Source: Candidatus Velthaea sp.
Lineage (GTDB): Bacteria > Vulcanimicrobiota > Vulcanimicrobiia > Vulcanimicrobiales > Vulcanimicrobiaceae
DNA length: 56,159 nt
NCBI GenBank assembly: GCA_050012475.1
Contig: JBEKHC010000021.1
Location: 1-56,159 of the forward strand
Reading direction: 5' to 3'
Shown: positions 41,517-56,159 of the stretch, in pieces
How positions within the stretch are numbered: the first letter of the stretch is position 1
Layout: every line of letters starts with the position of its first letter
Position numbers and translations under genes: made by a program
The notes under the pieces: generated by a model
The model's input: only the letters and a program-made list of their open reading frames with translations
The model's database searches: none
Told to the model about the DNA's origin: nothing

Positions 41517-41624
41517 GTCGCGTTCACCTCGCGGTCAGTGTATCGGCCGAGGATGAGAGAAATCTGAATGCCCGAACGGGCGGTCGGCTACGCCGTGCCG
41601 GCGATCTGCCCGCTGCGGCGTGTG

Positions 41625-41951
41625 CCAGGCGGCGGCGAAAAGCGGCTTGAACCGAGCGCTGCTCGATGCGGGCTTGGAATTCTTCGACGTTTGGTTGGCG
41701 AGAAGGCTGAAAGCGCCGTTCGCCGAGTGGTCGATGTCGAAACAAAATATTCGTCGCAGGAGTGCAGCAAATGCGGCACGATTGCGGCGAAGAGTCGCCG
41801 GAGAAGGCGCTTCGCTCGTATCGCGTGTGGGTTCACCCTTCACGCCGGTCTGAACGCGGCGCTGGTGATTCGGGAACGAGCGCAATTGGCGCTCGCGAGT
41901 GAGCCATATCCGGCCGAGGACGTCGGTCGCAGGGCACGATGCACTGCGTAG
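41625..41951 (+). pseudogene. tnpB: Truncated, frameshifted tnpB (IS200/IS605 family) remnant
   Basis: One frame gives AAKSGLNRALLDAG; another gives EKAESAVRRVVDVETKYSSQECSKCG...RFARIACGFTLHAGLNAALVI. N-terminus absent, RuvC-III D replaced by G, one Zn-finger C replaced by R. Confidence 0.85.
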
Positions 41952-42050: not shown

Positions 42051-42125
42051 AGCGCTTCGGACGCGCGTGGCGGCAAGCCATTTGTGACATTGCGCAGTTC
42101 GCCGTGCGGTGCTACCATCGCGACG

Positions 42126-43049
42126 ATGCCACTCATTCCGTTAGCCCCGCCGATGCCCGTGCCGCTCGCGGGCGGTTTCGATTACGTGACGGTGGACGCT
42201 GCGCACCGGCGCGTGTATGCTGCTCACACCGGCGCGTCGACGCTGCTGATCGTTGATGCCGACTCGGGTGCCGTTCTCCATCAAATTAGCGTCGGCCCGA
42301 TGCACGGGGTCGCTTACAGCGCCGATGGGACGAAGGTGTACACCGGCAACGGCGACGACAAGAGCGTCTCCGAAAGCGATCCAGCGACATTCAAGGTCAT
42401 GCGCACGGCGCCCGTCGACGGACCGGTCGACGCGATCGCGCTCGACGAGTCGAAGGGGCTCATCTATGCCGACGAAGACGACGGAACGCGCATCTTCGTC
42501 ATCGATGTCAAAACGATGAAGCAAATCGCGACCGTTGCGCTGCCGGGGCACAAGCCCGAGTACCTCGCGGTCGATCCGGCTACCCACGCCGTGTATCAGA
42601 ACATTGCCGATAAATCGGAAGTGGCGGTCGTCGACCCGCAGCAATTTTCCGTTGCTTCGATCGTTCCGACGCCCGAACTCACCTCGAATCACCCGCTCCA
42701 GTACGACGCCGGCTTCAAGCAAATCGTTGCCGGCGGCGCGAACGGCGTTCTGGGCGTGTACGATCCGGCGGGCAAAAAGCTGTTCCAGGCGGCGCTGCCG
42801 CCCCATGTCGATCAGTGCGACCTCGATCAGAGCACGCACCTCCTGGCGTGCGCAGGCGGAACGGGGATCACGGTCTTTCAATTGTCCGCCGACGCGGCGC
42901 CCAAAGTCGTCGGTTCGTCTACCGGAACGTATCGCGTTCACACGCTTGCCTTCGATGCGAAGACCCACGACGTCTGGGCGGTCATGGTCGACGACGGACC
43001 GTCGAAGGCCGGCTACATTCAGCGCTTTTCGCTCGGCGCCAAGCCATGA
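42126..43049 (+). CDS. YncE/YVTN-type beta-propeller protein
   Basis: GGFDYVTVD..HRRVY.AH, repeated blades (V.VID, LAVDP). Confidence 0.85.
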   Translation: MPLIPLAPPMPVPLAGGFDYVTVDAAHRRVYAAHTGASTLLIVDADSGAVLHQISVGPMHGVAYSADGTKVYTGNGDDKSVSESDPATFKVMRTAPVDGPVDAIALDESKGLIYADEDDGTRIFVIDVKTMKQIATVALPGHKPEYLAVDPATHAVYQNIADKSEVAVVDPQQFSVASIVPTPELTSNHPLQYDAGFKQIVAGGANGVLGVYDPAGKKLFQAALPPHVDQCDLDQSTHLLACAGGTGITVFQLSADAAPKVVGSSTGTYRVHTLAFDAKTHDVWAVMVDDGPSKAGYIQRFSLGAKP

Positions 43050-44125
43050 AGAAAATGAGCGTCCAACTGCGCACGCTGGCAGCGATCGGTCTCGCGACGC
43101 TGGCAATCGGCGGATTTCCGCGAGCGAGCGGCGCCGCCGGCGGTGCCGTGCCGCACTACGATCATATCTTGGTGATCGTCGAGGAAAACAAAGGCTACGC
43201 GACGGTTCTCAATCGCGGCGAAGCGCCGAACATCAGCCGACTGGCGGCGACGTACGGAACCGCGACGCAGATGTTTGCCGAGGTGCATCCCAGCGAACCA
43301 AACTACGTCGCGCTGCTCGGCGGCGATACGTTCGGCATTCACGACGACGACGCGTGGTACTGCGTTCCGAACGATACGCATCCGTCGTGCAAGGGGGCCG
43401 GCGAGCCCGGATTCGTCGCGCACTTGATCGACGGTCCGAACCTTGCGAGCCAACTGCGGGCCAAGGGCTTGGGTTGGCGCGCGTACCTCGAGAGCCTTCC
43501 GGCACCTGGCTCGCTGGCGATCGTTTCGCCCGAATCCGCCACCGAACCGGCCGCTTTGTATGCCGCGAAGCACACCGGCTTCACCAACTTCGCGTCCGTC
43601 CACGCCGATCCGGACTTGCAGAACGAACTCGTCGGGTTCGATGCGCTCAGCGCCGACTTGCAGGCGGGACGCATCCCGGCGTTCGCGTTCATCGTGCCCA
43701 ATCAGTGCAACGAAATGCACGGCATCGATTCACCCAAGGCGCCGCCGGATTGCGCCAAGGACGATGCCGGACTGGTCCGCCGCGGAGATACGGTCGTGGG
43801 GAACCTCGTCGCCGAAATTCAAGCCTCGCCAATCTGGAGCAACGGGAACACCGCTATCGTCATAACGTGGGACGAAGACGGCAAGGCCGATCGGCTGCCC
43901 GGCGCGCCGCAATCGTGCTGCGTGATTGACGCCCACAATCCGGGCGGCGGCCACATTCCGACGATCGTGATCACCAACCGCGGCCCGCATGGCGTGAGCG
44001 ATCCGACACCGTACGATCACTATAGCCTGTTGCGGACGTTCGAAGATGCGTTCGGTCTCGGCCATCTCCGTCACGCCGGCGACCCTGGTGTGCAGGCAAT
44101 GACGCCGCTCTTCGCGCTGAAATGA
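43046..44125 (+). CDS. Secreted phosphoesterase (acid phosphatase/phospholipase C family)
   Basis: Signal peptide, DHILVIVEEN, HPSEPNY, KH, PNQCNEMH, ITWDE, YDHYSLLRT. Confidence 0.9.
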   Translation: MKKMSVQLRTLAAIGLATLAIGGFPRASGAAGGAVPHYDHILVIVEENKGYATVLNRGEAPNISRLAATYGTATQMFAEVHPSEPNYVALLGGDTFGIHDDDAWYCVPNDTHPSCKGAGEPGFVAHLIDGPNLASQLRAKGLGWRAYLESLPAPGSLAIVSPESATEPAALYAAKHTGFTNFASVHADPDLQNELVGFDALSADLQAGRIPAFAFIVPNQCNEMHGIDSPKAPPDCAKDDAGLVRRGDTVVGNLVAEIQASPIWSNGNTAIVITWDEDGKADRLPGAPQSCCVIDAHNPGGGHIPTIVITNRGPHGVSDPTPYDHYSLLRTFEDAFGLGHLRHAGDPGVQAMTPLFALK

Positions 44126-44850
44126 GCGTGCCAACGCCTGCGGCGATGACAAGGCCCGGTCGGGCTCGAAGGTACGCGACGTTGAACGCGGTGCTCGAGA
44201 CCTCGGCCATCATCTTCGATCTCGACGGCGTACTCGCCGACTCGAGCGTGGTCGTCGACCACGCCTGGATCGAGTGGGGCGACCGCCACGGGATCGATCC
44301 CGGGCTGATCCGGCAAACCATTCCCGGTAAGCGAACGCGCGATTCGATCGCGCTTCTCGCGCCCGAAAGTGACGTGGAAGCTGAAGCGGCGCGCATCACC
44401 GCGCGCGAGCAAAGCTTGGTCGACTTCGTGACGCCGATTCGCGGCGCGGGCGCGCTGCTGGCCCAATTGCCGGCCGGCAGCTGGGGCGTTGCGACGTCGG
44501 GCACCGACGCCATCGCCCGCTCGCGGCTCGCCCATGCCGGCTTGCCGGTTCCGGACGTCCTCATTAGCGCGGACATGGTCCGGCGCGGCAAACCCGATCC
44601 CGAAGTCTATCTCCGGGCGGCAGCGGGACTCGGCGTCGATGCGACCGCTTGCATGGTCTTTGAGGATGCCCCCAGCGGCGTTCTTGCCGCAAGGGCAACC
44701 GGCGCGACCGTGGTGGGCGTGTTGACCTGGGCCGAGCGCTCACTCCTGCAGGTGACCTACGCCGTCAAGGACCTGCGAGCGGTGCACGTGACGGCGCTCG
44801 GCCGGCGCCTGCGCGTCGAATTGCACGATCCGGAGCCGGCAAGAACTTGA
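44122..44850 (+). CDS. HAD-IA family hydrolase (sugar phosphatase YfbT-like)
   Basis: FDLDGVLADS, VATSG, GKPDPE, FEDAPSG. Start could be further downstream. Confidence 0.9.
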   Translation: MSVPTPAAMTRPGRARRYATLNAVLETSAIIFDLDGVLADSSVVVDHAWIEWGDRHGIDPGLIRQTIPGKRTRDSIALLAPESDVEAEAARITAREQSLVDFVTPIRGAGALLAQLPAGSWGVATSGTDAIARSRLAHAGLPVPDVLISADMVRRGKPDPEVYLRAAAGLGVDATACMVFEDAPSGVLAARATGATVVGVLTWAERSLLQVTYAVKDLRAVHVTALGRRLRVELHDPEPART

Positions 44851-46796: not shown

Positions 46797-46940
46797 CGAA
46801 TGGTGTCCTCGTCCGCTCCCTTGGGCGCCGAAAATGATCTGCTGATGTTGCGCTCGACTAGCCGATGAGTTTCGCCTAGCGAACCGAATCCGGAGCGGCT
46901 TCGCCGAGCCGGGGCGGTATTATGGTGTTCTTGAGGATAC

Positions 46941-46973
46941 GTTAAACTCGGCTTAAGAGGCCTGAGGCACACT
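46941..46973 (+). promoter_or_regulatory. Candidate Pho-box promoter of the phn operon
   Basis: GTTAAACTCGG-CTTAAGA (11-bp period), 9 nt, then CACACT, just upstream of phnD. Confidence 0.6.
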
Positions 46974-47006: not shown

Positions 47007-47924
47007 GTGTCGCGATTTCTTCCGCCGCTGCTGTGCGCGTTCGCTCTTTCGGCGACGCCGTCGCTGCCGGCCTCGGCTCAAGCCCAGCCGGCCACCGCAG
47101 CCGGCTGTCCCAACGGAGGAACGGTGCGCTTTGGGCTCGAGCCGTTCGAGGCTGCGTCGCGCTTGCTCCCGGCGTACGATGCGCTGACCAAACTCGTGAG
47201 CGCGAAACTCGGCTGCCCGGTCGAACTGTTGATTACCACGAGCTACAACGCCGAGATCGAGGCCATGCGAAACGGCAAGCTCGACGTCGCTGAGTTTGGT
47301 CCGCTCGGATACGTGCTTGCACACCAAGTCGCGCATGCCGACGCCGTGGCGACGTATGGTGACGACACTGGCAAACCCATCGCTTACTATGCGAGCATCG
47401 TAAGCTGGCGTGGTTCGGGAATCACCTCGCTCAAGGATATCGCGAACCATTCGTTCGCGTACTCTGACCCGGCCTCGACGTCGGGCCACTTGTTTCCGGC
47501 TTACGGCTTACGGACCCATGGTATCGATCCGGATCACGGCATTCGCCCAATGTACGCCGGCAGCCACACCGCATCGTTCGAGGCGATCCGGAACAAAAAG
47601 GTCGATGCGGGGGAGCTCAACAGCAACGAAGTGGATAGCGCGACGGAGGCCGGCGAGTACACACCGGCTGACTGGGTGACGCTGTGGAAATCGGATCCGA
47701 TTCCCAATGATGCGATTGCCGTGCGACGCGACTTGCCCGACGCGTTCAAGCTGCGCTTCGCCCAAGTGATGCAGGCGCTGCCGTTCAGCGAGTTGCCGCC
47801 GGACGTCGTCAAGGTCTTTCCGGCCACGAAGACCACGCGCTTCGTGCCCATGCCCGACGCCGCCTACGACGGGATCCGCGACTTGGTGAAAACGCTGAAC
47901 GTCGATCTGACCAAATTATCGTGA
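47007..47924 (+). CDS. phnD: Phosphonate ABC transporter substrate-binding protein
   Basis: Signal peptide, SYNAEIEAMRNGKLD, DPASTSGHLFP, GSH, IPND. Confidence 0.93.
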   Translation: MSRFLPPLLCAFALSATPSLPASAQAQPATAAGCPNGGTVRFGLEPFEAASRLLPAYDALTKLVSAKLGCPVELLITTSYNAEIEAMRNGKLDVAEFGPLGYVLAHQVAHADAVATYGDDTGKPIAYYASIVSWRGSGITSLKDIANHSFAYSDPASTSGHLFPAYGLRTHGIDPDHGIRPMYAGSHTASFEAIRNKKVDAGELNSNEVDSATEAGEYTPADWVTLWKSDPIPNDAIAVRRDLPDAFKLRFAQVMQALPFSELPPDVVKVFPATKTTRFVPMPDAAYDGIRDLVKTLNVDLTKLS

Positions 47925-48694
47925 TCGCGGCCGAACCGCGCACGGGCACGTTGCTGGACGTGCGCGATCTCTCGATGCGGTTCGCCAACGGTTTCCAGGC
48001 GTTACGCGACGTGAGTCTGTCGATGCGGCCCGGCGAGCTCGTGGTAGTCCTGGGCAGCAACGGGTGCGGGAAATCGACCCTCCTGCGCTGCATGGCGCGT
48101 CTCCTCACCCCGACGAGCGGAACGATTCGCATCGGCGACGAGGATTTTTCGCGCTTGTCCGGTGAGGCGCTGCGTCGTGCGCGCTGCACGGTAGCGTTCG
48201 TTTCGCAACAAGCAAACCTCGTGCGCCGGCGCAGTGTGCTGGCAAACGTGGCGACGGGAACGCTTGGCCGGCATAGTTCGTTTGCCTCAGCGCTGGGATT
48301 CCTGCCCACGGCGGAGCTTTCGTTTGCGCACGAACAGCTGTGCATCGTGGGCTTGGGCGATCGGGCGCCGCAGCGCGCCGGCACGCTGTCCGGCGGCCAG
48401 GCGCAGCGCGTCGCGATCGGGCGCGCGCTCGCGCAGCGTCCGCGCGTCCTGCTGGCCGATGAGCCGGTCGCCAGCCTCGATCCGGACGCGGCGATCGACG
48501 TGTTGACGCTGTTGCGAAAGCTCGCCAACGAGGGCTTGGGCATCGTTTGCGTGCTGCACCAACCGGAGCTCGCTTTGCGCTTTGCCGATCGTATCGTCGG
48601 CATTCGCGCGGGCGAGATTGCGTTCGACGCGCACATTTCGGCGGTATCGACGGCGTCGATCGCGACCCTGTATGCCGGCAGCACGGCGGCGTGA
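47921..48694 (+). CDS. phnC: Phosphonate ABC transporter ATP-binding protein
   Basis: GSNGCGKST, LSGGQAQRVAIGRAL, LADEPVASLDP, LHQ. Confidence 0.93.
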   Translation: MIAAEPRTGTLLDVRDLSMRFANGFQALRDVSLSMRPGELVVVLGSNGCGKSTLLRCMARLLTPTSGTIRIGDEDFSRLSGEALRRARCTVAFVSQQANLVRRRSVLANVATGTLGRHSSFASALGFLPTAELSFAHEQLCIVGLGDRAPQRAGTLSGGQAQRVAIGRALAQRPRVLLADEPVASLDPDAAIDVLTLLRKLANEGLGIVCVLHQPELALRFADRIVGIRAGEIAFDAHISAVSTASIATLYAGSTAA

Positions 48695-49503
48695 AGCTCG
48701 TTCCCCAACGCGGTTCGCTCGCAGCCGCGATGCCGGCTGCAACCACGCACGGAGCTTGGCGCCTCGTCGCCGGAGCGTTCGGTGTGGTCCTCGTCGTCGC
48801 GCAGGCGCTCGTGGTGGTGAAAGCACGGCCGCAGGATCTCATAACCGGAGCAGCCGGCATGGCCGATATTCTCCGCCGAGCGGTACCGCCGAACTTCGGC
48901 TTGTTGCCGGCGACGATGTGGCCCACGCTCGAGACCTTCGACACGGCGCTCTTCGGAACGGTCGCAGCGATGCTTTTTGCGCTGCCGCTGGCGATCTTTG
49001 CGGCGCGCAACACGACGCCGTCCCGCCTCTTGTATCTGCTCTCGCGCGGAATGATTGCTCTCACGCGCGTCGTTCCCGACTTGATTTGGGCGCTGCTTTT
49101 CGTCACCGCCGTCGGCTTGGGCCCGTTCCCAGGAGCGCTCGCGTTAGCCGTACACTCGATCGGCATGCTCGGGCGATTGTTTGCCGAGGTGATCGAAGAC
49201 ATGGACATGGGCCCGGTCGAGGCCTTGACCTTGACCGGCGCCTCGCGCTTGCAAGTCTTTACGCATGCGGTCGTCCCGGGCGTCGCACCTTCGTTGCTCG
49301 GCATTGCGCTCTACCGGCTCGACGAGAACGTTCGCTCGTCCCTGGTGCTGGGGTTTGTCGGCGCGGGCGGCATCGGTTTTCAAATTCTCTCAGCGATGAA
49401 TCTGTTTCAGTATCGCGACGTTTCGCTCTACTTGATGTTGACGTTCGTGCTGGTCGTCGTGGTCGAGCGCTTGTCGGCGACGCTGCGTCGTGCCGTCCTG
49501 TGA
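48691..49503 (+). CDS. phnE: Phosphonate ABC transporter permease
   Basis: AARNTTP, VPDLIWALLF..AVGLGP, YRLDENVRSS.VLGFVGAGGIG. Confidence 0.93.
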   Translation: MKLVPQRGSLAAAMPAATTHGAWRLVAGAFGVVLVVAQALVVVKARPQDLITGAAGMADILRRAVPPNFGLLPATMWPTLETFDTALFGTVAAMLFALPLAIFAARNTTPSRLLYLLSRGMIALTRVVPDLIWALLFVTAVGLGPFPGALALAVHSIGMLGRLFAEVIEDMDMGPVEALTLTGASRLQVFTHAVVPGVAPSLLGIALYRLDENVRSSLVLGFVGAGGIGFQILSAMNLFQYRDVSLYLMLTFVLVVVVERLSATLRRAVL

Positions 49504-49961
49504 ACTTGAGCACGGAACGTCAGCGCTGGCTGCGCGTGCTCGCACTCGCGCCGTTCGCTCGGCTCGCGCGTGACGTGAGCGAGCTGGAACCGCTGCCGGC
49601 TTTCGTCCATGTGCGCGGGCCGGAAGTCGGCCTGGCGATGGTTCAGGGGCGGGCCGGCGCGGACGGCGCACCGTTCAACCTGGGTGAAATGACCGTTACG
49701 CGGTGCACGCTGCGGGTCACGATCGTTGACGATGAAGTCCGCAGCGGCTTCGCCTGCATCGCCGGGCGTTCACCACGGCACGCCGAACTCGCCGCCTTGT
49801 GCGACGCAATGCTGCAAAGCGTACGCTGGCGCGAGACGGTGATGCAGCGCGTGATCGCGCCGGCGGAACGAGCCTTGGCCGAGCGACGGGTGCTGGCCGC
49901 GCGGCGGCGGGCGGCGACAAAAGCGGAGTTCGTCACCGTCGTTCGGTCGGGTGAAGCGTGA
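49500..49961 (+). CDS. phnG: C-P lyase subunit PhnG
   Basis: RQRWLRVLA, PEVGLAMVQGR, FNLGEMTVTRC, AELAALCDA, TKAEF. Confidence 0.93.
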   Translation: MNLSTERQRWLRVLALAPFARLARDVSELEPLPAFVHVRGPEVGLAMVQGRAGADGAPFNLGEMTVTRCTLRVTIVDDEVRSGFACIAGRSPRHAELAALCDAMLQSVRWRETVMQRVIAPAERALAERRVLAARRRAATKAEFVTVVRSGEA

Positions 49962-50530
49962 GCGCGGTTTTCGATCCGGTCCACGTGGCGCAGCGGACGT
50001 TTCGGGCGCTGCTCGCGGCGCTGGCCCACCCCTGCCGTGAAGTGACGATCGACGAAGAGCTGGGCGCGCCGAGCGAGTTGGGGCCGGCGTTGGCGGCGGC
50101 GGCGTTAACGCTGCTCGACCGTGACACGGCCGTTTGGCTTGACCCGGCGCGGATCGCGGCTCGTGCGTGGCTCGCCGCCCGAACCGGCTGCCGGTTCGTC
50201 ACAGCGCGCGAGCAGGCCCAATTCGGCATTATCTTGGAGGCCGAAACGCTTTCGCCGCTCGCGCGTTGGCCTGCGGGCACCGCCGAGGATCCCGAGGATT
50301 CAGCGACGCTGCTCGTGCGCGTCCGCGATTTTGACGGCACATTCGAGGTCGCGCTGACCGGACCGGGCATCGAGAGCGAGGCATCTTTGGGCAGCGTTTC
50401 GCTGACCCGGCGCTTTTGGACCGAATGGATGGACAACGTGTCGCGCTATCCGCTGGGCGTCGATTGCTTTCTGTTCACCTCGACGGGCGTCGTGGGTCTG
50501 CCGCGGACAACGCGCGTCGCGCCGGCATGA
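49958..50530 (+). CDS. phnH: C-P lyase subunit PhnH
   Basis: DPVHVAQRTFRALL, LTLLD.DT.VWL, GT...PEDSATL, LTGPGI, YPLGVD, GLPRTT. Confidence 0.93.
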   Translation: MSAVFDPVHVAQRTFRALLAALAHPCREVTIDEELGAPSELGPALAAAALTLLDRDTAVWLDPARIAARAWLAARTGCRFVTAREQAQFGIILEAETLSPLARWPAGTAEDPEDSATLLVRVRDFDGTFEVALTGPGIESEASLGSVSLTRRFWTEWMDNVSRYPLGVDCFLFTSTGVVGLPRTTRVAPA

Positions 50531-51603
50531 CGTACGTCGCGGTCAAAGGCGGCGAACGCGCGATTGCGAATGCCGAAGCCCTGTTGCACGCGCTGCGCCG
50601 CGGCGACCCGGGAACGCCGGATCTCACGGTCGAGCAGATCCAGAGCCAGCTTGGCCTTGCCGTCGACCGCGTGATGTGCGAAGGCAGCCTCTACGACCGG
50701 TCGCTCGCGGCGCTGGCGATCAAACAGGCCTGGGGCGATCTCGTGGAAGCGGTGTTTCTGACGCGCGCCTTCCGCACGACGCTCGAGCGTTTCTACGACA
50801 CGCTGCCGATTGAAACGTCGCAGATGGAACTGGTTCGACGCATCTCGGCCATCTTCAAGGACATCCCAGGCGGCCAGATCATCGGGCCAAGCTTCGACTA
50901 CACGCAGCGGTTGCTGGATTTCAGCCTGCTCGCGGGCAACGGAAAATTGCCGCACGTGCTCGACGATGCGGAGATCGGGCCGATTCCCGGCGTGATCGAT
51001 CTGCTGCGCAGCGAAGACCTGATCGCGCCCGACGAATGCGAAGTGCCGGCGGCGGTCGCGGACTTGACCCGCGACCCGCTGCGCTTTCCCGCCGAGCGCG
51101 CCCTGCGTCTGCAGGCGCTGGCGCGCGCCGATGAAGGCTTTCTGCTCGGACTCGCTTACTCGACGCAGCGCGGATATGGCCGCAATCATCCCTTCGCGGG
51201 CGAGGTCCGGGTGGGCGACGCGGAAGTGACGGTGTTCGACGACGAGTTGGGCTTCGAGGTGGTCATCGGCGAGATCACGGTGACTGAGATTCAGATGGTA
51301 AATCAGTTCGTCGGCAGTGCGCGCGAGCCGGCGCAGTTCACTCGCGGCTACGGACTGACCTTGGGCTATAACGAACGCAAAGCCATGTCGATGGCGCTCG
51401 TCGATCGCGCGTTGCGCAGCGACGAATACGGAGAACGCGTCCGGGGACCCGCGCAGGACGCCGAATTCGTCCTCTCGCACAGCGACAATGTCGAAGCGCA
51501 AGGCTTCGTGCAGCATCTCAAGCTGCCGCATTACGTTGACTTTCAGGCCGAATTGCAGCTGATCCGCGGGCTGCGAGCTCAGGTCAACGAGGATGCCACG
51601 TGA
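50527..51603 (+). CDS. phnI: C-P lyase subunit PhnI
   Basis: YVAVKGGERAI, RRISA.FKDIPGGQ, YSTQRGYG..HPF, HLKLPHYVDFQ. Confidence 0.96.
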   Translation: MTYVAVKGGERAIANAEALLHALRRGDPGTPDLTVEQIQSQLGLAVDRVMCEGSLYDRSLAALAIKQAWGDLVEAVFLTRAFRTTLERFYDTLPIETSQMELVRRISAIFKDIPGGQIIGPSFDYTQRLLDFSLLAGNGKLPHVLDDAEIGPIPGVIDLLRSEDLIAPDECEVPAAVADLTRDPLRFPAERALRLQALARADEGFLLGLAYSTQRGYGRNHPFAGEVRVGDAEVTVFDDELGFEVVIGEITVTEIQMVNQFVGSAREPAQFTRGYGLTLGYNERKAMSMALVDRALRSDEYGERVRGPAQDAEFVLSHSDNVEAQGFVQHLKLPHYVDFQAELQLIRGLRAQVNEDAT

Positions 51604-52478
51604 TCGCCGTTGCGCGGACAATCGCCGGGCGGCGCAGCGATCGTGCGGCGCGCGGCTTCAATTTCGGTTATCTCGACGAGGGCACGAAGCGGTCGATCCG
51701 CCGCAGTTTGCTCAAAGCGGTCGCGATCCCGGGACATCAAGTCCCGTTCCGCTCGCGCGAGATGCCGATGTCCTATGGTTGGGGCACCGGCGGCATTCAG
51801 GTGACCTCCTCGATCATCGGTCTCGACGACACGCTCAAGGTGATCGATCAAGGCGCCGACGACACGACGAACGCGGTCAGCATCCGGCAGTTCTTCCGCA
51901 AGACGTGCGGCGTGCCCACCACGACTCGCACCGCCGATGCTACGATCGTGCAGACGCGTCACCGGATCCCCGAAACGCCGCTGCGCGAAGGGCAAATTCT
52001 GGTCTATCAGGTGCCGATCCCCGAACCGCTGCGCGAACTCGAACCCTCAGAAGTGAAAACGAAGAAGATGCACGCGCTCGAGGAGTACGGTCCGATGTAC
52101 TTGCGGCTGTACGAGGACATCGCAACGTACGGCCGGATCGCAACTGCCTACAACTATCCGGTGCTCGTGCACGGCCGGTACGTGATGAGTCCCAGTCCGA
52201 TCCCGCGCTTCGACAATCCCAAGCTTCACGCCAACCCGGCACTGCAGCTCTTCGGTGCCGGGCGCGAAAAGCGGTTGTACGCCGTGCCGCCGTACACCCG
52301 GGTCGAAAGTCTATCGTTCGACGATTATCCGTTCGAGCGCGAAACGTGGCAGCGGGCTTGCGAGTTCTGTGCTTCGCGCACCAGCTATCTCGACGAAGTC
52401 GTCGTCGGCGACCGCGGCGAGCGGATTTGGATCTGTTCGGACACCGACTTCTGCGCCGAGCGACGGAGTCAAGCGTGA
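51600..52478 (+). CDS. phnJ: Radical SAM C-P lyase PhnJ
   Basis: KAVAIPGHQVPF, GWGTGGIQ, VIDQGADD, CxxC-x21-CSDTDFC. Confidence 0.97.
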   Translation: MIAVARTIAGRRSDRAARGFNFGYLDEGTKRSIRRSLLKAVAIPGHQVPFRSREMPMSYGWGTGGIQVTSSIIGLDDTLKVIDQGADDTTNAVSIRQFFRKTCGVPTTTRTADATIVQTRHRIPETPLREGQILVYQVPIPEPLRELEPSEVKTKKMHALEEYGPMYLRLYEDIATYGRIATAYNYPVLVHGRYVMSPSPIPRFDNPKLHANPALQLFGAGREKRLYAVPPYTRVESLSFDDYPFERETWQRACEFCASRTSYLDEVVVGDRGERIWICSDTDFCAERRSQA

Positions 52479-53245
52479 AACCGCTGCTGCGCGTGTGCGG
52501 GGTGAGCAAGCGCTTCGGCCGCCACATCGCTTGCGACGATGTTTCGCTCGAGCTTTTTGCGGGACAGGTTTTGGGCCTCGTCGGTGAGTCGGGTTCGGGC
52601 AAGACAACGCTCTTGCACACGCTCCTGGGCGATCTTCAGCCCGATGCGGGCGAGGTCGTGTACAACTCTGCCGACGGTGATGCACTCGTGCTGTCCGGCC
52701 TCAGCGAAGCGCGCCGCCGGCATCTGAGGCGCACCGAGTGGGGGCTCGTGCATCAAAATCCGCGCGACGGGCTGCGCATGTACGTCAGCGCCGGCGCGAA
52801 TGTCGCCGAACGGCTGCTCGACGGCGGCGCTCGCAATTATGGTCGCATTCGCGAAACCGTGCTGCACTGGCTGCGTGAGGTTGAAATCGATCCATCGCGC
52901 GTCGACGAACGGCCCGCCACCTTTTCCGGCGGCATGCAGCAGCGTTTGCAGCTTGCGCGCGTGCTCGTCACGCATCCCCGCCTCGTGCTCATGGACGAAC
53001 CTACCGGCGGTCTCGACCTTTCGGTTCAAGCGCGCTTGCTGGACCTGATTCGGACGCTCGTGCGCGAGCTGCACTTGAGCGTTATCGTCGTCACGCATGA
53101 TATCGGCGTCGTGCGGCTGATCGCCGACCAGGTGCTGGTGATGCGGAAAGGCCGGATCGTTGAAAGCGGGATCGCCGACCGCGTCTTGGACGATCCGCAA
53201 CATCCGTACACGCAGCTGCTCGTGAGCGCAGCGCTCGTTCCGTGA
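52475..53245 (+). CDS. phnK: C-P lyase ATPase PhnK
   Basis: GESGSGKTT, RTEWGLVHQNPRDGLR, FSGGMQQR, VLDDPQHPYTQLLVS. Confidence 0.95.
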   Translation: MKPLLRVCGVSKRFGRHIACDDVSLELFAGQVLGLVGESGSGKTTLLHTLLGDLQPDAGEVVYNSADGDALVLSGLSEARRRHLRRTEWGLVHQNPRDGLRMYVSAGANVAERLLDGGARNYGRIRETVLHWLREVEIDPSRVDERPATFSGGMQQRLQLARVLVTHPRLVLMDEPTGGLDLSVQARLLDLIRTLVRELHLSVIVVTHDIGVVRLIADQVLVMRKGRIVESGIADRVLDDPQHPYTQLLVSAALVP

Positions 53246-53946
53246 TCGCTTCGCCGGCGCCGCTGCTGCGCGCAACGGGGGTAGCGAAAACCTTCACTCT
53301 GCATCTGCAGGGCGGAACGCGGCTGGCCGTGCTGCACGACGTATCGCTCGAGTTGCGGGCCGGCGAATGCGTCGCGCTGGCGGGCGTTTCGGGCAGCGGC
53401 AAGTCCACGTTCATGCGCGCGCTGTATGGAAACTACGGGATCGACGCGGGTTCAATCGTCGTGCGCGACGGCGACCGCGACGTCGACCTGACGGGCTTGG
53501 AACCGCACGAACTCACGGCGCTGCGCGCGCGCACGGTCGGCTACGTCAGCCAGTTCTTGCGGGTCATTCCGCGCATCCCGGCGCTCGAGATCGCGACCGA
53601 ACCGCTCGTCGCGACCGGCGTCGAGGCGGCGCTGGCGCGAACGATCGTGAGCGCGCTCTTTACGCGGCTGGCGCTGCCGCAGCGCTTGTGGCAGCTTTCG
53701 CCCACGACGTTTTCCGGCGGCGAGAAACAACGCGTGAATTTGGCCCGGACGCTGGCCGTCGCGTATCCGGTTCTGCTGCTCGATGAGCCGACGTCGGCGC
53801 TGGATGCGGACAGCCGCGAGCGCGTGATCGGTCTGCTGCTCGAACGAAAAAAGGCCGGGGTTGCGATGGTCGGGATCTTTCACGATGACGAAGTTCGTCG
53901 CCGGCTGGCCGACCGTTGCGTCTCGTTCGGGTTGAAGCCGGAATGA
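53242..53946 (+). CDS. phnL: C-P lyase ATPase PhnL
   Basis: KTFTLHLQGG, YVSQFLRVIPR, TFSGGEKQRVN, GIFHD. Confidence 0.95.
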   Translation: MIASPAPLLRATGVAKTFTLHLQGGTRLAVLHDVSLELRAGECVALAGVSGSGKSTFMRALYGNYGIDAGSIVVRDGDRDVDLTGLEPHELTALRARTVGYVSQFLRVIPRIPALEIATEPLVATGVEAALARTIVSALFTRLALPQRLWQLSPTTFSGGEKQRVNLARTLAVAYPVLLLDEPTSALDADSRERVIGLLLERKKAGVAMVGIFHDDEVRRRLADRCVSFGLKPE

Positions 53947-55106
53947 TGATCGATACGATGCAACGCCTGGAGTCCGGTCGTGCGGCATACACCAACGGGC
54001 GCCTGCTATTGCCGGATCGCGAAGTCTGGGGAACGCTGATCGTCGAGAACGGCCGTATCGCCGACATCGGTGAGGGCCTCTTTCGCGGTGGCGTCGACGT
54101 CGGCGGCGCGATTTGCATGCCTGGTTTGGTCGAGCTTCACACCGACAACATCGAGACGGTGCTCGCGCCGCGGCCGGGCGTGCGCTGGCCGCTGGAGTTG
54201 GCCGCGCACTATCACGATCGCAGCATCATCGCCGCGGGGATCACGACGGTTTGCGATGCGATTGCGCTGGGTGACACCCTGCCGGGAAGCTCGCGCCTCG
54301 AATACTACGCACCGATCATCGAGGTCATCGCGCGCGGCGCTGCTGCCGGGCGCTATGCGTCCGACCATCGGATCCACTTGCGCTGCGAACTCGTCTACGA
54401 TGAACTCGTCGAGGTCGTGGCGCGGTTTATCGACGAACCGCTAGTAGTTCTGCTATCCGTCATGGACCATACGCCGGGTCAGCGCCAGTTCGCCGACCTC
54501 GACAAGTTCGAACAGTACTACGGCGGCCGCTATGGCTTAGACCGCGCCGGCATCGCTCGCGTGATGGAAGATCGCCTGCGTGCGCAAGAACGCCACGCGG
54601 CGAGCAATCGAGACCGCGTCGTCGCGATGGCGCGCGAACGATCGATCCCGCTCGCGACCCACGACGACGCCTTGCCCGAACATATCGCCGAAGCGGTGCG
54701 TGAAGGCGCCGCCATCGCCGAGTTTCCGACGACGGCGCAAGCCGCTCGAGCCGCGCGCGAATCCGGGCTGCACGTCCTCATGGGCGCGCCCAACGTCGTC
54801 CTGGGCGGATCGCAGTCCGGCAACGTTTCCGCGCTTGCGCTTGCCGCGAGCGGCTTGGTCGACATCTTCTCGTCCGACTACGTCCCGCAGAGCTTGCTGC
54901 AGGTGCCGTTCGCACTCGCCGCGGCGACGCGAGCACCACTCTACGAGACGGTGCGCAGCGTGACGAGCACGCCGGCGCGCGCGATCGGGTTGACCGACCG
55001 CGGAACGCTCGAAATCGGCAAACGCGCCGATCTGCTCTTTGTCGATGTGGATCGCGACCAGCCGCGCATATGCGGCGTCGTCAGCGCCGGCGTGCGCGTC
55101 GCGTGA
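53943..55106 (+). CDS. phnM: Alpha-D-ribose 1-methylphosphonate 5-triphosphate diphosphatase
   Basis: PGLVELHTDN, HLRCE, MDHTPGQRQF, THDD, AEFPTT, GAPNVV.GGS.SGN, SSDYVP. Confidence 0.96.
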   Translation: MMIDTMQRLESGRAAYTNGRLLLPDREVWGTLIVENGRIADIGEGLFRGGVDVGGAICMPGLVELHTDNIETVLAPRPGVRWPLELAAHYHDRSIIAAGITTVCDAIALGDTLPGSSRLEYYAPIIEVIARGAAAGRYASDHRIHLRCELVYDELVEVVARFIDEPLVVLLSVMDHTPGQRQFADLDKFEQYYGGRYGLDRAGIARVMEDRLRAQERHAASNRDRVVAMARERSIPLATHDDALPEHIAEAVREGAAIAEFPTTAQAARAARESGLHVLMGAPNVVLGGSQSGNVSALALAASGLVDIFSSDYVPQSLLQVPFALAAATRAPLYETVRSVTSTPARAIGLTDRGTLEIGKRADLLFVDVDRDQPRICGVVSAGVRVA

Positions 55107-55294
55107 GCTTCGCCGCGCGTGCCGGCAACGTGCTCCCATGGGCGCTGCTGGGTGCACTCGTCATAGCGGGCGCCGCGGTTCCGGCCGTGGCGCCGGTTCG
55201 CGCCCCGGCCGGGCCGCTCGGAGCGCACGTTCGGGCCGACCGCACCTTGGACTGCCGGGTCGCCGTTTCGGTCGCCGGTGGATGCCGGCGATGA
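55103..55294 (+). CDS. Small hypothetical membrane/secreted peptide (63 aa)
   Basis: GTG overlaps the phnM stop and its TGA overlaps the next ATG; one hydrophobic segment. Confidence 0.45.
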   Translation: MSFAARAGNVLPWALLGALVIAGAAVPAVAPVRAPAGPLGAHVRADRTLDCRVAVSVAGGCRR

Positions 55295-56159
55295 CGGATC
55301 TCGCGCCGGCGACGGCGCTCGTGCGGCCGGCCGCGCTTGACGACCGCGAGGCGATCGTCGCACTCGTGGCGGCGATGGGCGGACACGAAGAGGTTGCCCA
55401 GAGCGCAAAACCGTTCGCTATGCTGGCCGCCGTGCTCGCCGCGCCCGAGAGCCGAGTCCTGGTGGCCGAGCGCGCGCGCCGTGTCGTCGGCGTCGCAGCG
55501 CTGCACGTCCGGACCTCGCTCCTGCGCGATCGGCGGGAGGCCTGGCTGGGCGTGCTGGCCGTCGCTCCCGAGGTGCGCTCGAGCGCCGTCGGCGCGACAC
55601 TGCTCGAGGCCGTCCAACGCGCTGCCGCGCAGCTCGGCTGCGCTGCGATCGTGCTGGAAACATCGCAAGTTCGCGAGCGCGCGGCGGCCTTTTACGCGCG
55701 CGAAGGCTTTGTCGAAAGCCGGCCTGCGCGACGGTTCGAGCGAGCCGTGGCCGCCGTCGACGGTACCCTGCCGGAACGGTTTCTCGCCGCCGCGGCGCGC
55801 GCGGCGACGCGGGCGGCCGAAGCCGTGGCCGGGCGCGGCCAGGCGGATCCGATCGGTGTCGGCGCCGACGGTGCGCCGACCGAAGCGGCCGACGCCGCCG
55901 CCGAGGGCGCCGCGGTCGCCGAGCTTCTGGCCCTCGGCATTCCGATCGTCAGCGAAGAAGCCGGGTTGGTCGGCGCTGCGGCGTTGGATCCCGCGCAGCC
56001 CTGGATCTCGCTCGACCCATTGGACGGCAGCCGCAATTTCGTCAACGGGTTTCCCTGCTACGCAATGTCGGCCGGCTTGGTCCAGGCCGGAAAAGCCTTA
56101 GCGGGCCTGGTCGCGGATCTTGCCGGGGGTCCGCGCTGGGAGGCCAGCGGCGGGGGCGG
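55291..56159 (+). CDS. PhnO-like GNAT acetyltransferase fused to an inositol monophosphatase/FBPase-family domain (3' end runs off the window)
   Basis: Stop-free manual translation from ATG 55291: GNAT (LAVAPEVRSSAVGATLL...LETSQVRERAAAFYAREGF), then GADGAPTEAAD..AE, VSEE, DPLDGSRNF. Missing from the ORF track. Confidence 0.87.
   Translation, partial: MTDLAPATALVRPAALDDREAIVALVAAMGGHEEVAQSAKPFAMLAAVLAAPESRVLVAERARRVVGVAALHVRTSLLRDRREAWLGVLAVAPEVRSSAVGATLLEAVQRAAAQLGCAAIVLETSQVRERAAAFYAREGFVESRPARRFERAVAAVDGTLPERFLAAAARAATRAAEAVAGRGQADPIGVGADGAPTEAADAAAEGAAVAELLALGIPIVSEEAGLVGAAALDPAQPWISLDPLDGSRNFVNGFPCYAMSAGLVQAGKALAGLVADLAGGPRWEASGGG

Follow-up and report, generated by a model that had tools for sequence, protein, structure and literature searches.

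The locus described here raises the question of how C-P lyase operons that lack phnN and phnP recover phosphate. PhnCDE imports phosphonates, and PhnGHIJKLM then produces PRcP. E. coli uses PhnP to open the PRcP ring, which gives ribose 1,5-bisphosphate, and PhnN to turn this product into PRPP; a 2023 review mentions organisms that lack PhnNOP yet grow on phosphonates (PMC10574752). A variant exit is known in PhnPP, whose product is ribose 5-phosphate (PMC8774927).

The original prediction for this DNA proposed that a PhnO-like acetyltransferase (GNAT) fused to a phosphatase serves as a bifunctional enzyme of a variant exit route. The fusion, its linkage to phn genes, and the absence of PhnN and PhnP have all held. 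The remainder is less secure, as the GNAT domain falls below the PhnO cut-off and a DUF1045 gene lies adjacent. Our preferred reading, held with evenly balanced confidence, is that the fusion is a C-P lyase operon-tail protein whose phosphatase replaces PhnN, with a predicted conversion of ribose bisphosphate to ribose 5-phosphate and Pi.

A GNAT-phosphatase fusion at the end of a phn operon

The window, meaning the whole 56,159-nucleotide stretch that was analyzed, is an entire contig (C21), and its end interrupts the fusion gene. Overlapping genes in the order phnD-C-E-G-H-I-J-K-L-M precede the fusion, with the core phnGHIJKLM genes in one cluster. The features are as follows.

46930..46959, + strand: three 8-base units with an 11-base period, likely a Pho-type box, upstream of phnD (score 15/24)
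47007..47924, + strand: phnD-type binding protein (PF12974; TIGR01098 over cut-off, TIGR03431 under)
47921..48694, + strand: phnC (TIGR02315 246 bits, cut-off 266)
48682..49503, + strand: phnE (TIGR01097 over cut-off; overlaps phnG directly, no phnF)
49500..49961, + strand: phnG (Pfam/NCBIfam matches)
49958..50530, + strand: phnH (Pfam/NCBIfam matches)
50527..51603, + strand: phnI (PF05861)
51600..52478, + strand: phnJ, C-P lyase (PF06007)
52475..53245, + strand: phnK (TIGR02323 over cut-off)
53242..53946, + strand: phnL (TIGR02324 over cut-off)
53943..55106, + strand: phnM (TIGR02318 over cut-off)
55103..55294, + strand: 63-codon coupling ORF with a hydrophobic N-terminus (no Pfam/NCBIfam match; overlaps the fusion start)
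55291..55758, + strand: GNAT domain of the fusion, PhnO-like, below cut-off (Pfam, NCBIfam, alignment)
55765..56159, + strand: N-terminal half of an IMPase/FBPase-fold phosphatase (Inositol_P match)
Contig C131 (L001 10600-10214), minus strand: remainder of the phosphatase, 128 aa (in-frame continuation)

The frame that opens with the ATG at 55291 is stop-free over 289 codons to the contig end, as originally described. This 289-residue part matches Acetyltransf_1 (residues 47-140, E 2.4e-13) and Inositol_P (residues 162-286, E 5.2e-16, profile positions 3-134 of 271), such that an HMM scan recovers both predicted domains, and the phosphatase motifs quoted earlier are present in the sequence. 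The downstream sequence was retrieved from a second contig. The final 23 window bases are the reverse complement of the end of C131, whose minus strand supplies 128 in-frame residues and a stop codon, including the last metal-ligand motif, for a full fusion protein of 282 + 128 = 410 aa. A 726-base contig of public run X1, which may be the source sample of the window DNA, bridges the join with zero mismatches (window 56020-56159 plus C131 9992-10600).

Homologue P0003 is likewise 410 aa long; its identity is 89% with the window part and 97% with the C131 part. Both Pfam domains occur in 85 of the first 86 homologue matches, whose lengths range from 381 to 503 aa. Furthermore, the region between the domains is covered by contigs of runs X2 and X3 with no indels. 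The GNAT-phosphatase fusion is therefore real, rather than a chance or misread frame. The two-domain homologues, the length of P0003, and the X1, X2, and X3 contigs rule out a frameshift or assembly artefact.

The fusion had been described as joined to phnM by overlapping start and stop codons. Operon coupling stands, but it is not direct, as the 63-codon ORF (55103-55294) intervenes. Judged from its sequence and place, this ORF is possibly a relic of a second phnD, which is found at that position in three relatives; its likeness to the signal peptides of the relatives' phnD genes is weak and not significant (shuffle p 0.05, 0.06, and 0.25). At the phnE/phnG junction (window 49500), where phnF is missing, most relatives carry a GntR/UTRA gene.

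Behind the fusion, overlapping codons continue on C131 into DUF1045 (TIGR03223 over cut-off), a second phnM, and a TIGR03308 hexapeptide gene. The operon end (L001:7742-9504, minus strand) holds the last two of these, and the second PhnM-like gene scores 303 bits, under the TIGR02318 cut-off. The same trio of DUF1045, second PhnM-like, and TIGR03308 genes is also present in G230, G294, and L033-L035. The long ORF that follows the operon (L001:4302-8051, minus strand) may encode a tricorn-type protease, judging from its motifs. On the other side, genes for a beta-propeller protein, a PF04185 phosphoesterase, and a HAD hydrolase (window 42084-44850) immediately precede leuA and the phn operon and are possible additional phosphorus-scavenging genes. 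A short ORF with two Cys pairs (window 41568-41951) resembles what we take to be the zinc-ribbon end of an IS605-type gene.

Linkage to C-P lyase and a survey of the known exit enzymes

We examined 401 genomes of the phylum, of which 18 carry the phosphatase subfamily and 11 carry phnJ. All 11 phnJ genomes have the phosphatase 2.6-3.5 kb downstream of phnJ, counting kin that are not independent, compared to seven of the other 390 genomes, and a family-level search of 348 genomes found no further carrier. The predicted linkage to phn genes across genomes is thus tight. These operons fall into two deep PhnJ clades, with a third lineage in metagenome locus L052, and their PhnI proteins are 35-44% identical between lineages. 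Among 22 metagenome loci of the subfamily, 12 have a phn-associated gene (including this organism's own locus and two near-duplicates), seven have none, and three are uninformative. More distant IMPases were represented by 41 loci, many of them short, and no core phn gene appears at any of them. Beyond the phylum, the evidence for linkage comes from metagenome loci L052 and L054 and from proteins P0166 and P0184.

Architecture variants separate the two domains. The G294 operon has the phosphatase without the GNAT, the N-terminal domain in the L052 operon is degenerate with no Pfam match, and in P0091 the phosphatase comes first and the GNAT second; the PhnO score of P0091 (60 bits) is the highest among those scanned. 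What regularly accompanies C-P lyase is therefore the phosphatase, with the GNAT as an optional addition. In the P0166 cluster (two 823-aa proteins), a PhnM-like domain (338 bits) is fused to the GNAT and the phosphatase; P0166 belongs to a distant lineage and has a different phosphatase mobile loop. In P0184, a PhnZ-like piece comes after the C-terminal part of the phosphatase, with a probable frameshift in between.

Co-occurrence with the known exit enzymes was also assessed. Neither PhnN nor PhnP is over cut-off in any of the 18 carrier genomes, including this one (93.8% complete), and the E. coli control is positive. The PhnN-like match in this genome is a guanylate kinase. PhnPP (NF041661, cut-off 500) is likewise over cut-off in none of the 18 carriers, a test that no control genome passed either, and 17 of the 18 have an unlinked PHP homologue of the PhnPP superfamily (71-130 bits). 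DUF1045 occurs in three of the 18 carriers, including this genome, always directly behind the phosphatase gene. The remaining eight of 11 operons lack a linked ring-opening enzyme (DUF1045, PhnP, or PhnPP), and five of these eight genomes have no PF13563 2H enzyme. Two results, the linkage in 11 of 11 phnJ genomes and the lack of any PhnN or PhnP score over cut-off among the 18 carriers, make a variant exit our best reading. The earlier statement that phnN and phnP are not in the window stands for those two genes, but RcsF/DUF1045, a proposed PhnP substitute (PMC3840354), adjoins the fusion on C131. For this reason, the phosphatase in this genome would most simply replace PhnN only.

In the order of DUF1045, second phnM, and TIGR03308 genes, the operon resembles the DUF1045/RcsF type, but phnN is absent here and a phosphatase gene abuts DUF1045; a published survey found DUF1045 near phnN in 86% of cases (PMC3266647). 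The fusion phosphatase would share with PhnN (TIGR02322) its position in the pathway, acting on the bisphosphate after ring opening (PMC10574752), but the folds are unrelated, and PhnN forms PRPP with ATP, in contrast to the hydrolysis to ribose 5-phosphate and Pi proposed here. PhnPP (phosphoribosyl 1,2-cyclic phosphate 1,2-diphosphodiesterase) is likewise a variant exit, but it has a PHP fold and cleaves both bonds with one enzyme.

The two domains and the proposed reaction

The phosphatase domain belongs to the inositol monophosphatase superfamily (PF00459, 59.4 bits for the incomplete window part against a gathering cut-off of 27), with the EE, DPxDG(T/S), and C-terminal Asp signatures and an alpha-beta sandwich fold. 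Metal ligands E222, E223, D242, D245, and D359 are invariant in 123 of 123 full-length homologues, as are R248, R325, and R327, and H358, beside the last metal ligand, is kept in 120. A structure model of P0003 (pLDDT 91.9, pTM 0.91) has as its closest solved folds MJ0109 (Z 31.6, rmsd 2.3, 242 residues aligned) and AF2372 (Z 31.2). The Arg-x-Arg pair of the family aligns with that of these archaeal enzymes, where we take it to bind the distal phosphate.

With the archaeal dual IMPase/FBPases (MJ0109, AF2372; PRK12676), the family has in common the fold, the metal ligands, a short mobile loop, and Arg-x-Arg. However, identity is 27-34%, and scores are 103-146 bits against the PRK12676 equivalog cut-off of 264 (P0003, 135 bits; 15 homologues, 103-146). 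The family differs further in an Arg after the DG-S/T motif, a His before the last Asp, the GNAT fusion, the phn-operon context, and its separation as a subfamily. The SuhB, HisN, and CysQ cut-offs (332, 275, and 229) are not reached either: P0003 scores 70 for HisN and 61 for CysQ, and SuhB scores are at most 42 among homologues. By way of the MJ0109 alignment, position 349 can be taken as the counterpart of human E213; all but one of 123 homologues have Ala, Asp, Gly, Ser, or Thr there. The lack of Glu or Gln at the E213 position has been given as a criterion that allows a second phosphate in the IMPase family (PMC2080633).

When the phosphatase-domain profile was run against 1.84 billion representatives, full-length matches scored at least 206 bits and the next at most 149, a drop that indicates a small, separate subfamily. 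Source names of the homologues point to Vulcanimicrobiaceae/Eremiobacterota, with more distant members in Actinomycetota and Dormibacteraeota; this genome presumably falls in the first of these groups. Half or more of the sampled words were recovered in four runs, all of them soil or peat metagenomes, from three studies, and no RNA run was among those listed. A genome-contig scan with P0003 returned no fusion relatives, just five unrelated GNATs; the viral scan gave no match, plasmids gave generic IMPases only, and the Atlas gave generic GNAT and IMPase clusters only. A housekeeping FBPase or IMPase role is disfavoured, as GlpX was found in five of five genomes tested and this genome has two other IMPase genes. 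One of the other IMPase-family matches in this genome (L006, contig C147:5794-6522) contains a TGA stop.

The original prediction likened the GNAT domain to PhnO. PhnO (PRK10146) is indeed the best NCBIfam GNAT match for the window domain and is matched by 19 of 20 members. However, the window score is 46.1 bits against an equivalog cut-off of 142 (maximum 60.3 among the homologues scanned), so the domain is PhnO-like and not PhnO, and it scores nearly as well against generic and aminoglycoside acetyltransferases. Beyond the match itself, it shares with PhnO the GNAT fold and a place at the tail of a phn operon and differs in a family-specific MGGH motif and the phosphatase fusion. This copy has Ala at position 99, where 107 of 123 homologues have Gly, and Ala at position 132, where 106 of 123 have His; the X2 and X3 contigs that cover both positions carry no other letters there. 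The GNAT may be weakened in this copy. From the operon context, we tentatively suggest a PhnO analogue that N-acetylates 1-aminoalkylphosphonates, an assignment that falls a little short of an even balance.

As in the established pathway, PhnCDE takes up phosphonate and PhnGHIJKLM turns it into PRcP; the genes for both steps are present here. On our preferred reading, the PRcP ring would then be opened by the adjacent DUF1045/RcsF protein in this genome, and presumably by an unlinked housekeeping phosphodiesterase in the eight of 11 operons without DUF1045. Finally, the metal-dependent IMPase/FBPase-fold domain would remove the ring phosphate (at the 1- or 2-position) while the conserved Arg pair holds the 5-phosphate. 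We infer a ribose bisphosphate substrate because the nearest solved relatives act on both IMP, with its ring-bound phosphate, and FBP, a furanose bisphosphate, and ribose 1,5- or 2,5-bisphosphate combines both features. The predicted reaction, from either bisphosphate to ribose 5-phosphate and Pi, is somewhat favoured over its negation. The GNAT would be an optional passenger whose acetylation might serve entry and detoxification.

A literature search found no report that joins inositol monophosphatase to C-P lyase or phnM, or Eremiobacter or WPS-2 to phosphonate, among sources that excluded most subscription papers. Unnamed phosphatases and acetyltransferases inserted in phn operons are mentioned in one paper, whose Fig. 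S5 may bear on novelty (PMC9426474). The domain folds and the pathway are known; their combination and its fixed place in operons that lack PhnN appear undescribed. The fusion phosphatase is a specific, assayable candidate, found in all C-P lyase operons sampled from the phylum. If the reading is true, the pathway would gain an exit that needs no ATP, and the gene could mark phosphonate use by peat and soil bacteria and possibly also their release of methane from methylphosphonate. Its reach is capped because the family is small and lineage-limited.

Carriers without C-P lyase and alternative explanations

No phnJ is present in seven of the 18 carriers, one of which is a single-contig genome that is 99% complete, and phnM was found in none of five phnJ-less carriers tested. 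Homologs unlinked to phn genes had been named as evidence that would speak against the predicted role: 11 of 18 carriers are linked, but the other seven retain conserved copies. These copies keep the catalytic motifs, and rough Nei-Gojobori estimates from eight pairs give dN/dS values of 0.12-0.23 for the phosphatase and 0.05-0.34 for the GNAT, both similar to phn-linked pairs. Purifying selection on these copies implies that the phosphatase is useful without ribose bisphosphate from C-P lyase.

The phn-less copies adjoin valS, thiC, ilv/leu genes, or pyrG, and at the valS and pyrG sites G357 and L039 have a whole phn operon. In trees, phn-less copies group with phn-borne ones at moderate support (87/82, 92/70, and 82/93). 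Together with a frameshifted phnZ-like gene in G011, these shared sites and groupings fit a loss of the operon in which its last gene was kept. On the other hand, nine phn-less members form a clade with strong support (100/99), which, like the purifying selection, speaks for some use of the protein without C-P lyase. A suggested detoxification role for PhnO without C-P lyase in Salmonella (PMC3463581) offers a precedent for keeping the GNAT after operon loss. In G011 (L109:8700-10540), a single-contig genome without C-P lyase, a box-like repeat and a frameshifted phnZ-like gene precede the fusion. The repeat scores 15, a value reached by 68 of 600 random windows, and the frameshift could reflect either a pseudogene or a sequencing error. 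A PhnZ-GNAT-phosphatase triple fusion was rejected in this genome, where the frameshifted phnZ-like gene runs into the fusion frame.

Three units with an 11-base period upstream of phnD score at least 15 in 10 of 11 operons versus 50 of 1,500 random 300-base windows, a count that is partly circular because the Pho-type box consensus was chosen after inspecting the same upstream regions. No such box lies within 400 bases upstream of any of 13 phn-less copies, which therefore do not look starvation-regulated. Among the 12 top-scoring box sites in this genome, one precedes a PHO4 phosphate transporter gene (L143:4948-6786, contig C31), and the genes behind two others that were inspected have no clear phosphate link. 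A second box lies about 2.5 kb from the L143 PHO4 box, before a gene of no tested family.

The alternative that survives best holds that the fusion contributes a co-transcribed, broad-specificity phosphate-starvation phosphatase, which strips esters imported by PhnCDE or stalled 5-phosphoribosyl-phosphonates while housekeeping enzymes perform the true exit. Purifying selection in the seven genomes without C-P lyase agrees with such a role, as do the promiscuity of the IMPase family (PMC2080633, PMC8553519) and the PHP enzyme of 17 of 18 genomes, which could perform the exit. However, a generic scavenger would need neither to occur in 11 of 11 operons from divergent lineages nor to be fused to PhnM, and the upstream box is missing at all 13 phn-less copies. 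We retain this explanation as unlikely though deserving of weight, because detoxification by the GNAT would leave the conserved phosphatase unexplained.

A second and improbable alternative is that the phosphatase by itself opens PRcP and releases Pi, as a PhnPP analogue on the IMPase fold. This would account for the eight of 11 operons without DUF1045, PhnP, or PhnPP, three of them in genomes that are 95-97% complete in one to eight contigs with no PF13563 match, and for H358 and R248, both missing from the archaeal enzymes. However, three genomes, this one included, retain DUF1045 directly behind the phosphatase gene, housekeeping enzymes of PHP or metallo-beta-lactamase fold could open the ring, and we know of no phosphodiesterase with an IMPase fold. 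If true, the enzyme would to our knowledge be the first such phosphodiesterase and would form a third unrelated exit beside PhnP plus PhnN and PhnPP; with the PhnO analogue (and PhnM in one lineage), entry and exit steps would reside on one chain.

Least probable is that both domains act sequentially on one amino-bearing phosphorus compound independently of C-P lyase, possibly with a PhnZ-like oxygenase: the domains stay together after operon loss, are fused in either order (P0091), and have a PhnZ-like gene directly upstream in six of 11 phnJ genomes and phn-less G011 and downstream in P0184, but two phn operons have no GNAT or only a degenerate one, four phnJ genomes (this one included) have no PhnZ-like match, and the G011 phnZ-like gene is frameshifted.

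Some further observations concern the phn-less genomes and their surroundings. A search for phosphonatase in five phn-less genomes, run without a positive control, gave no match. The PhnD-like gene of phn-less carriers was rejected as an operon remnant: it is a paralogue at an unlinked site and resembles the TIGR04553 type more closely. Four genomes that have no C-P lyase (L114:5692-9431 of G039 and L115-L117) carry genes for a TIGR04553-type PhnD/C/E-like transporter that enclose a YdfG-like dehydrogenase gene. In G376 (L111:8674-9252), the fusion has behind it, on its own strand, a gene for an inorganic pyrophosphatase, which would suit pyrophosphate released by PhnM.
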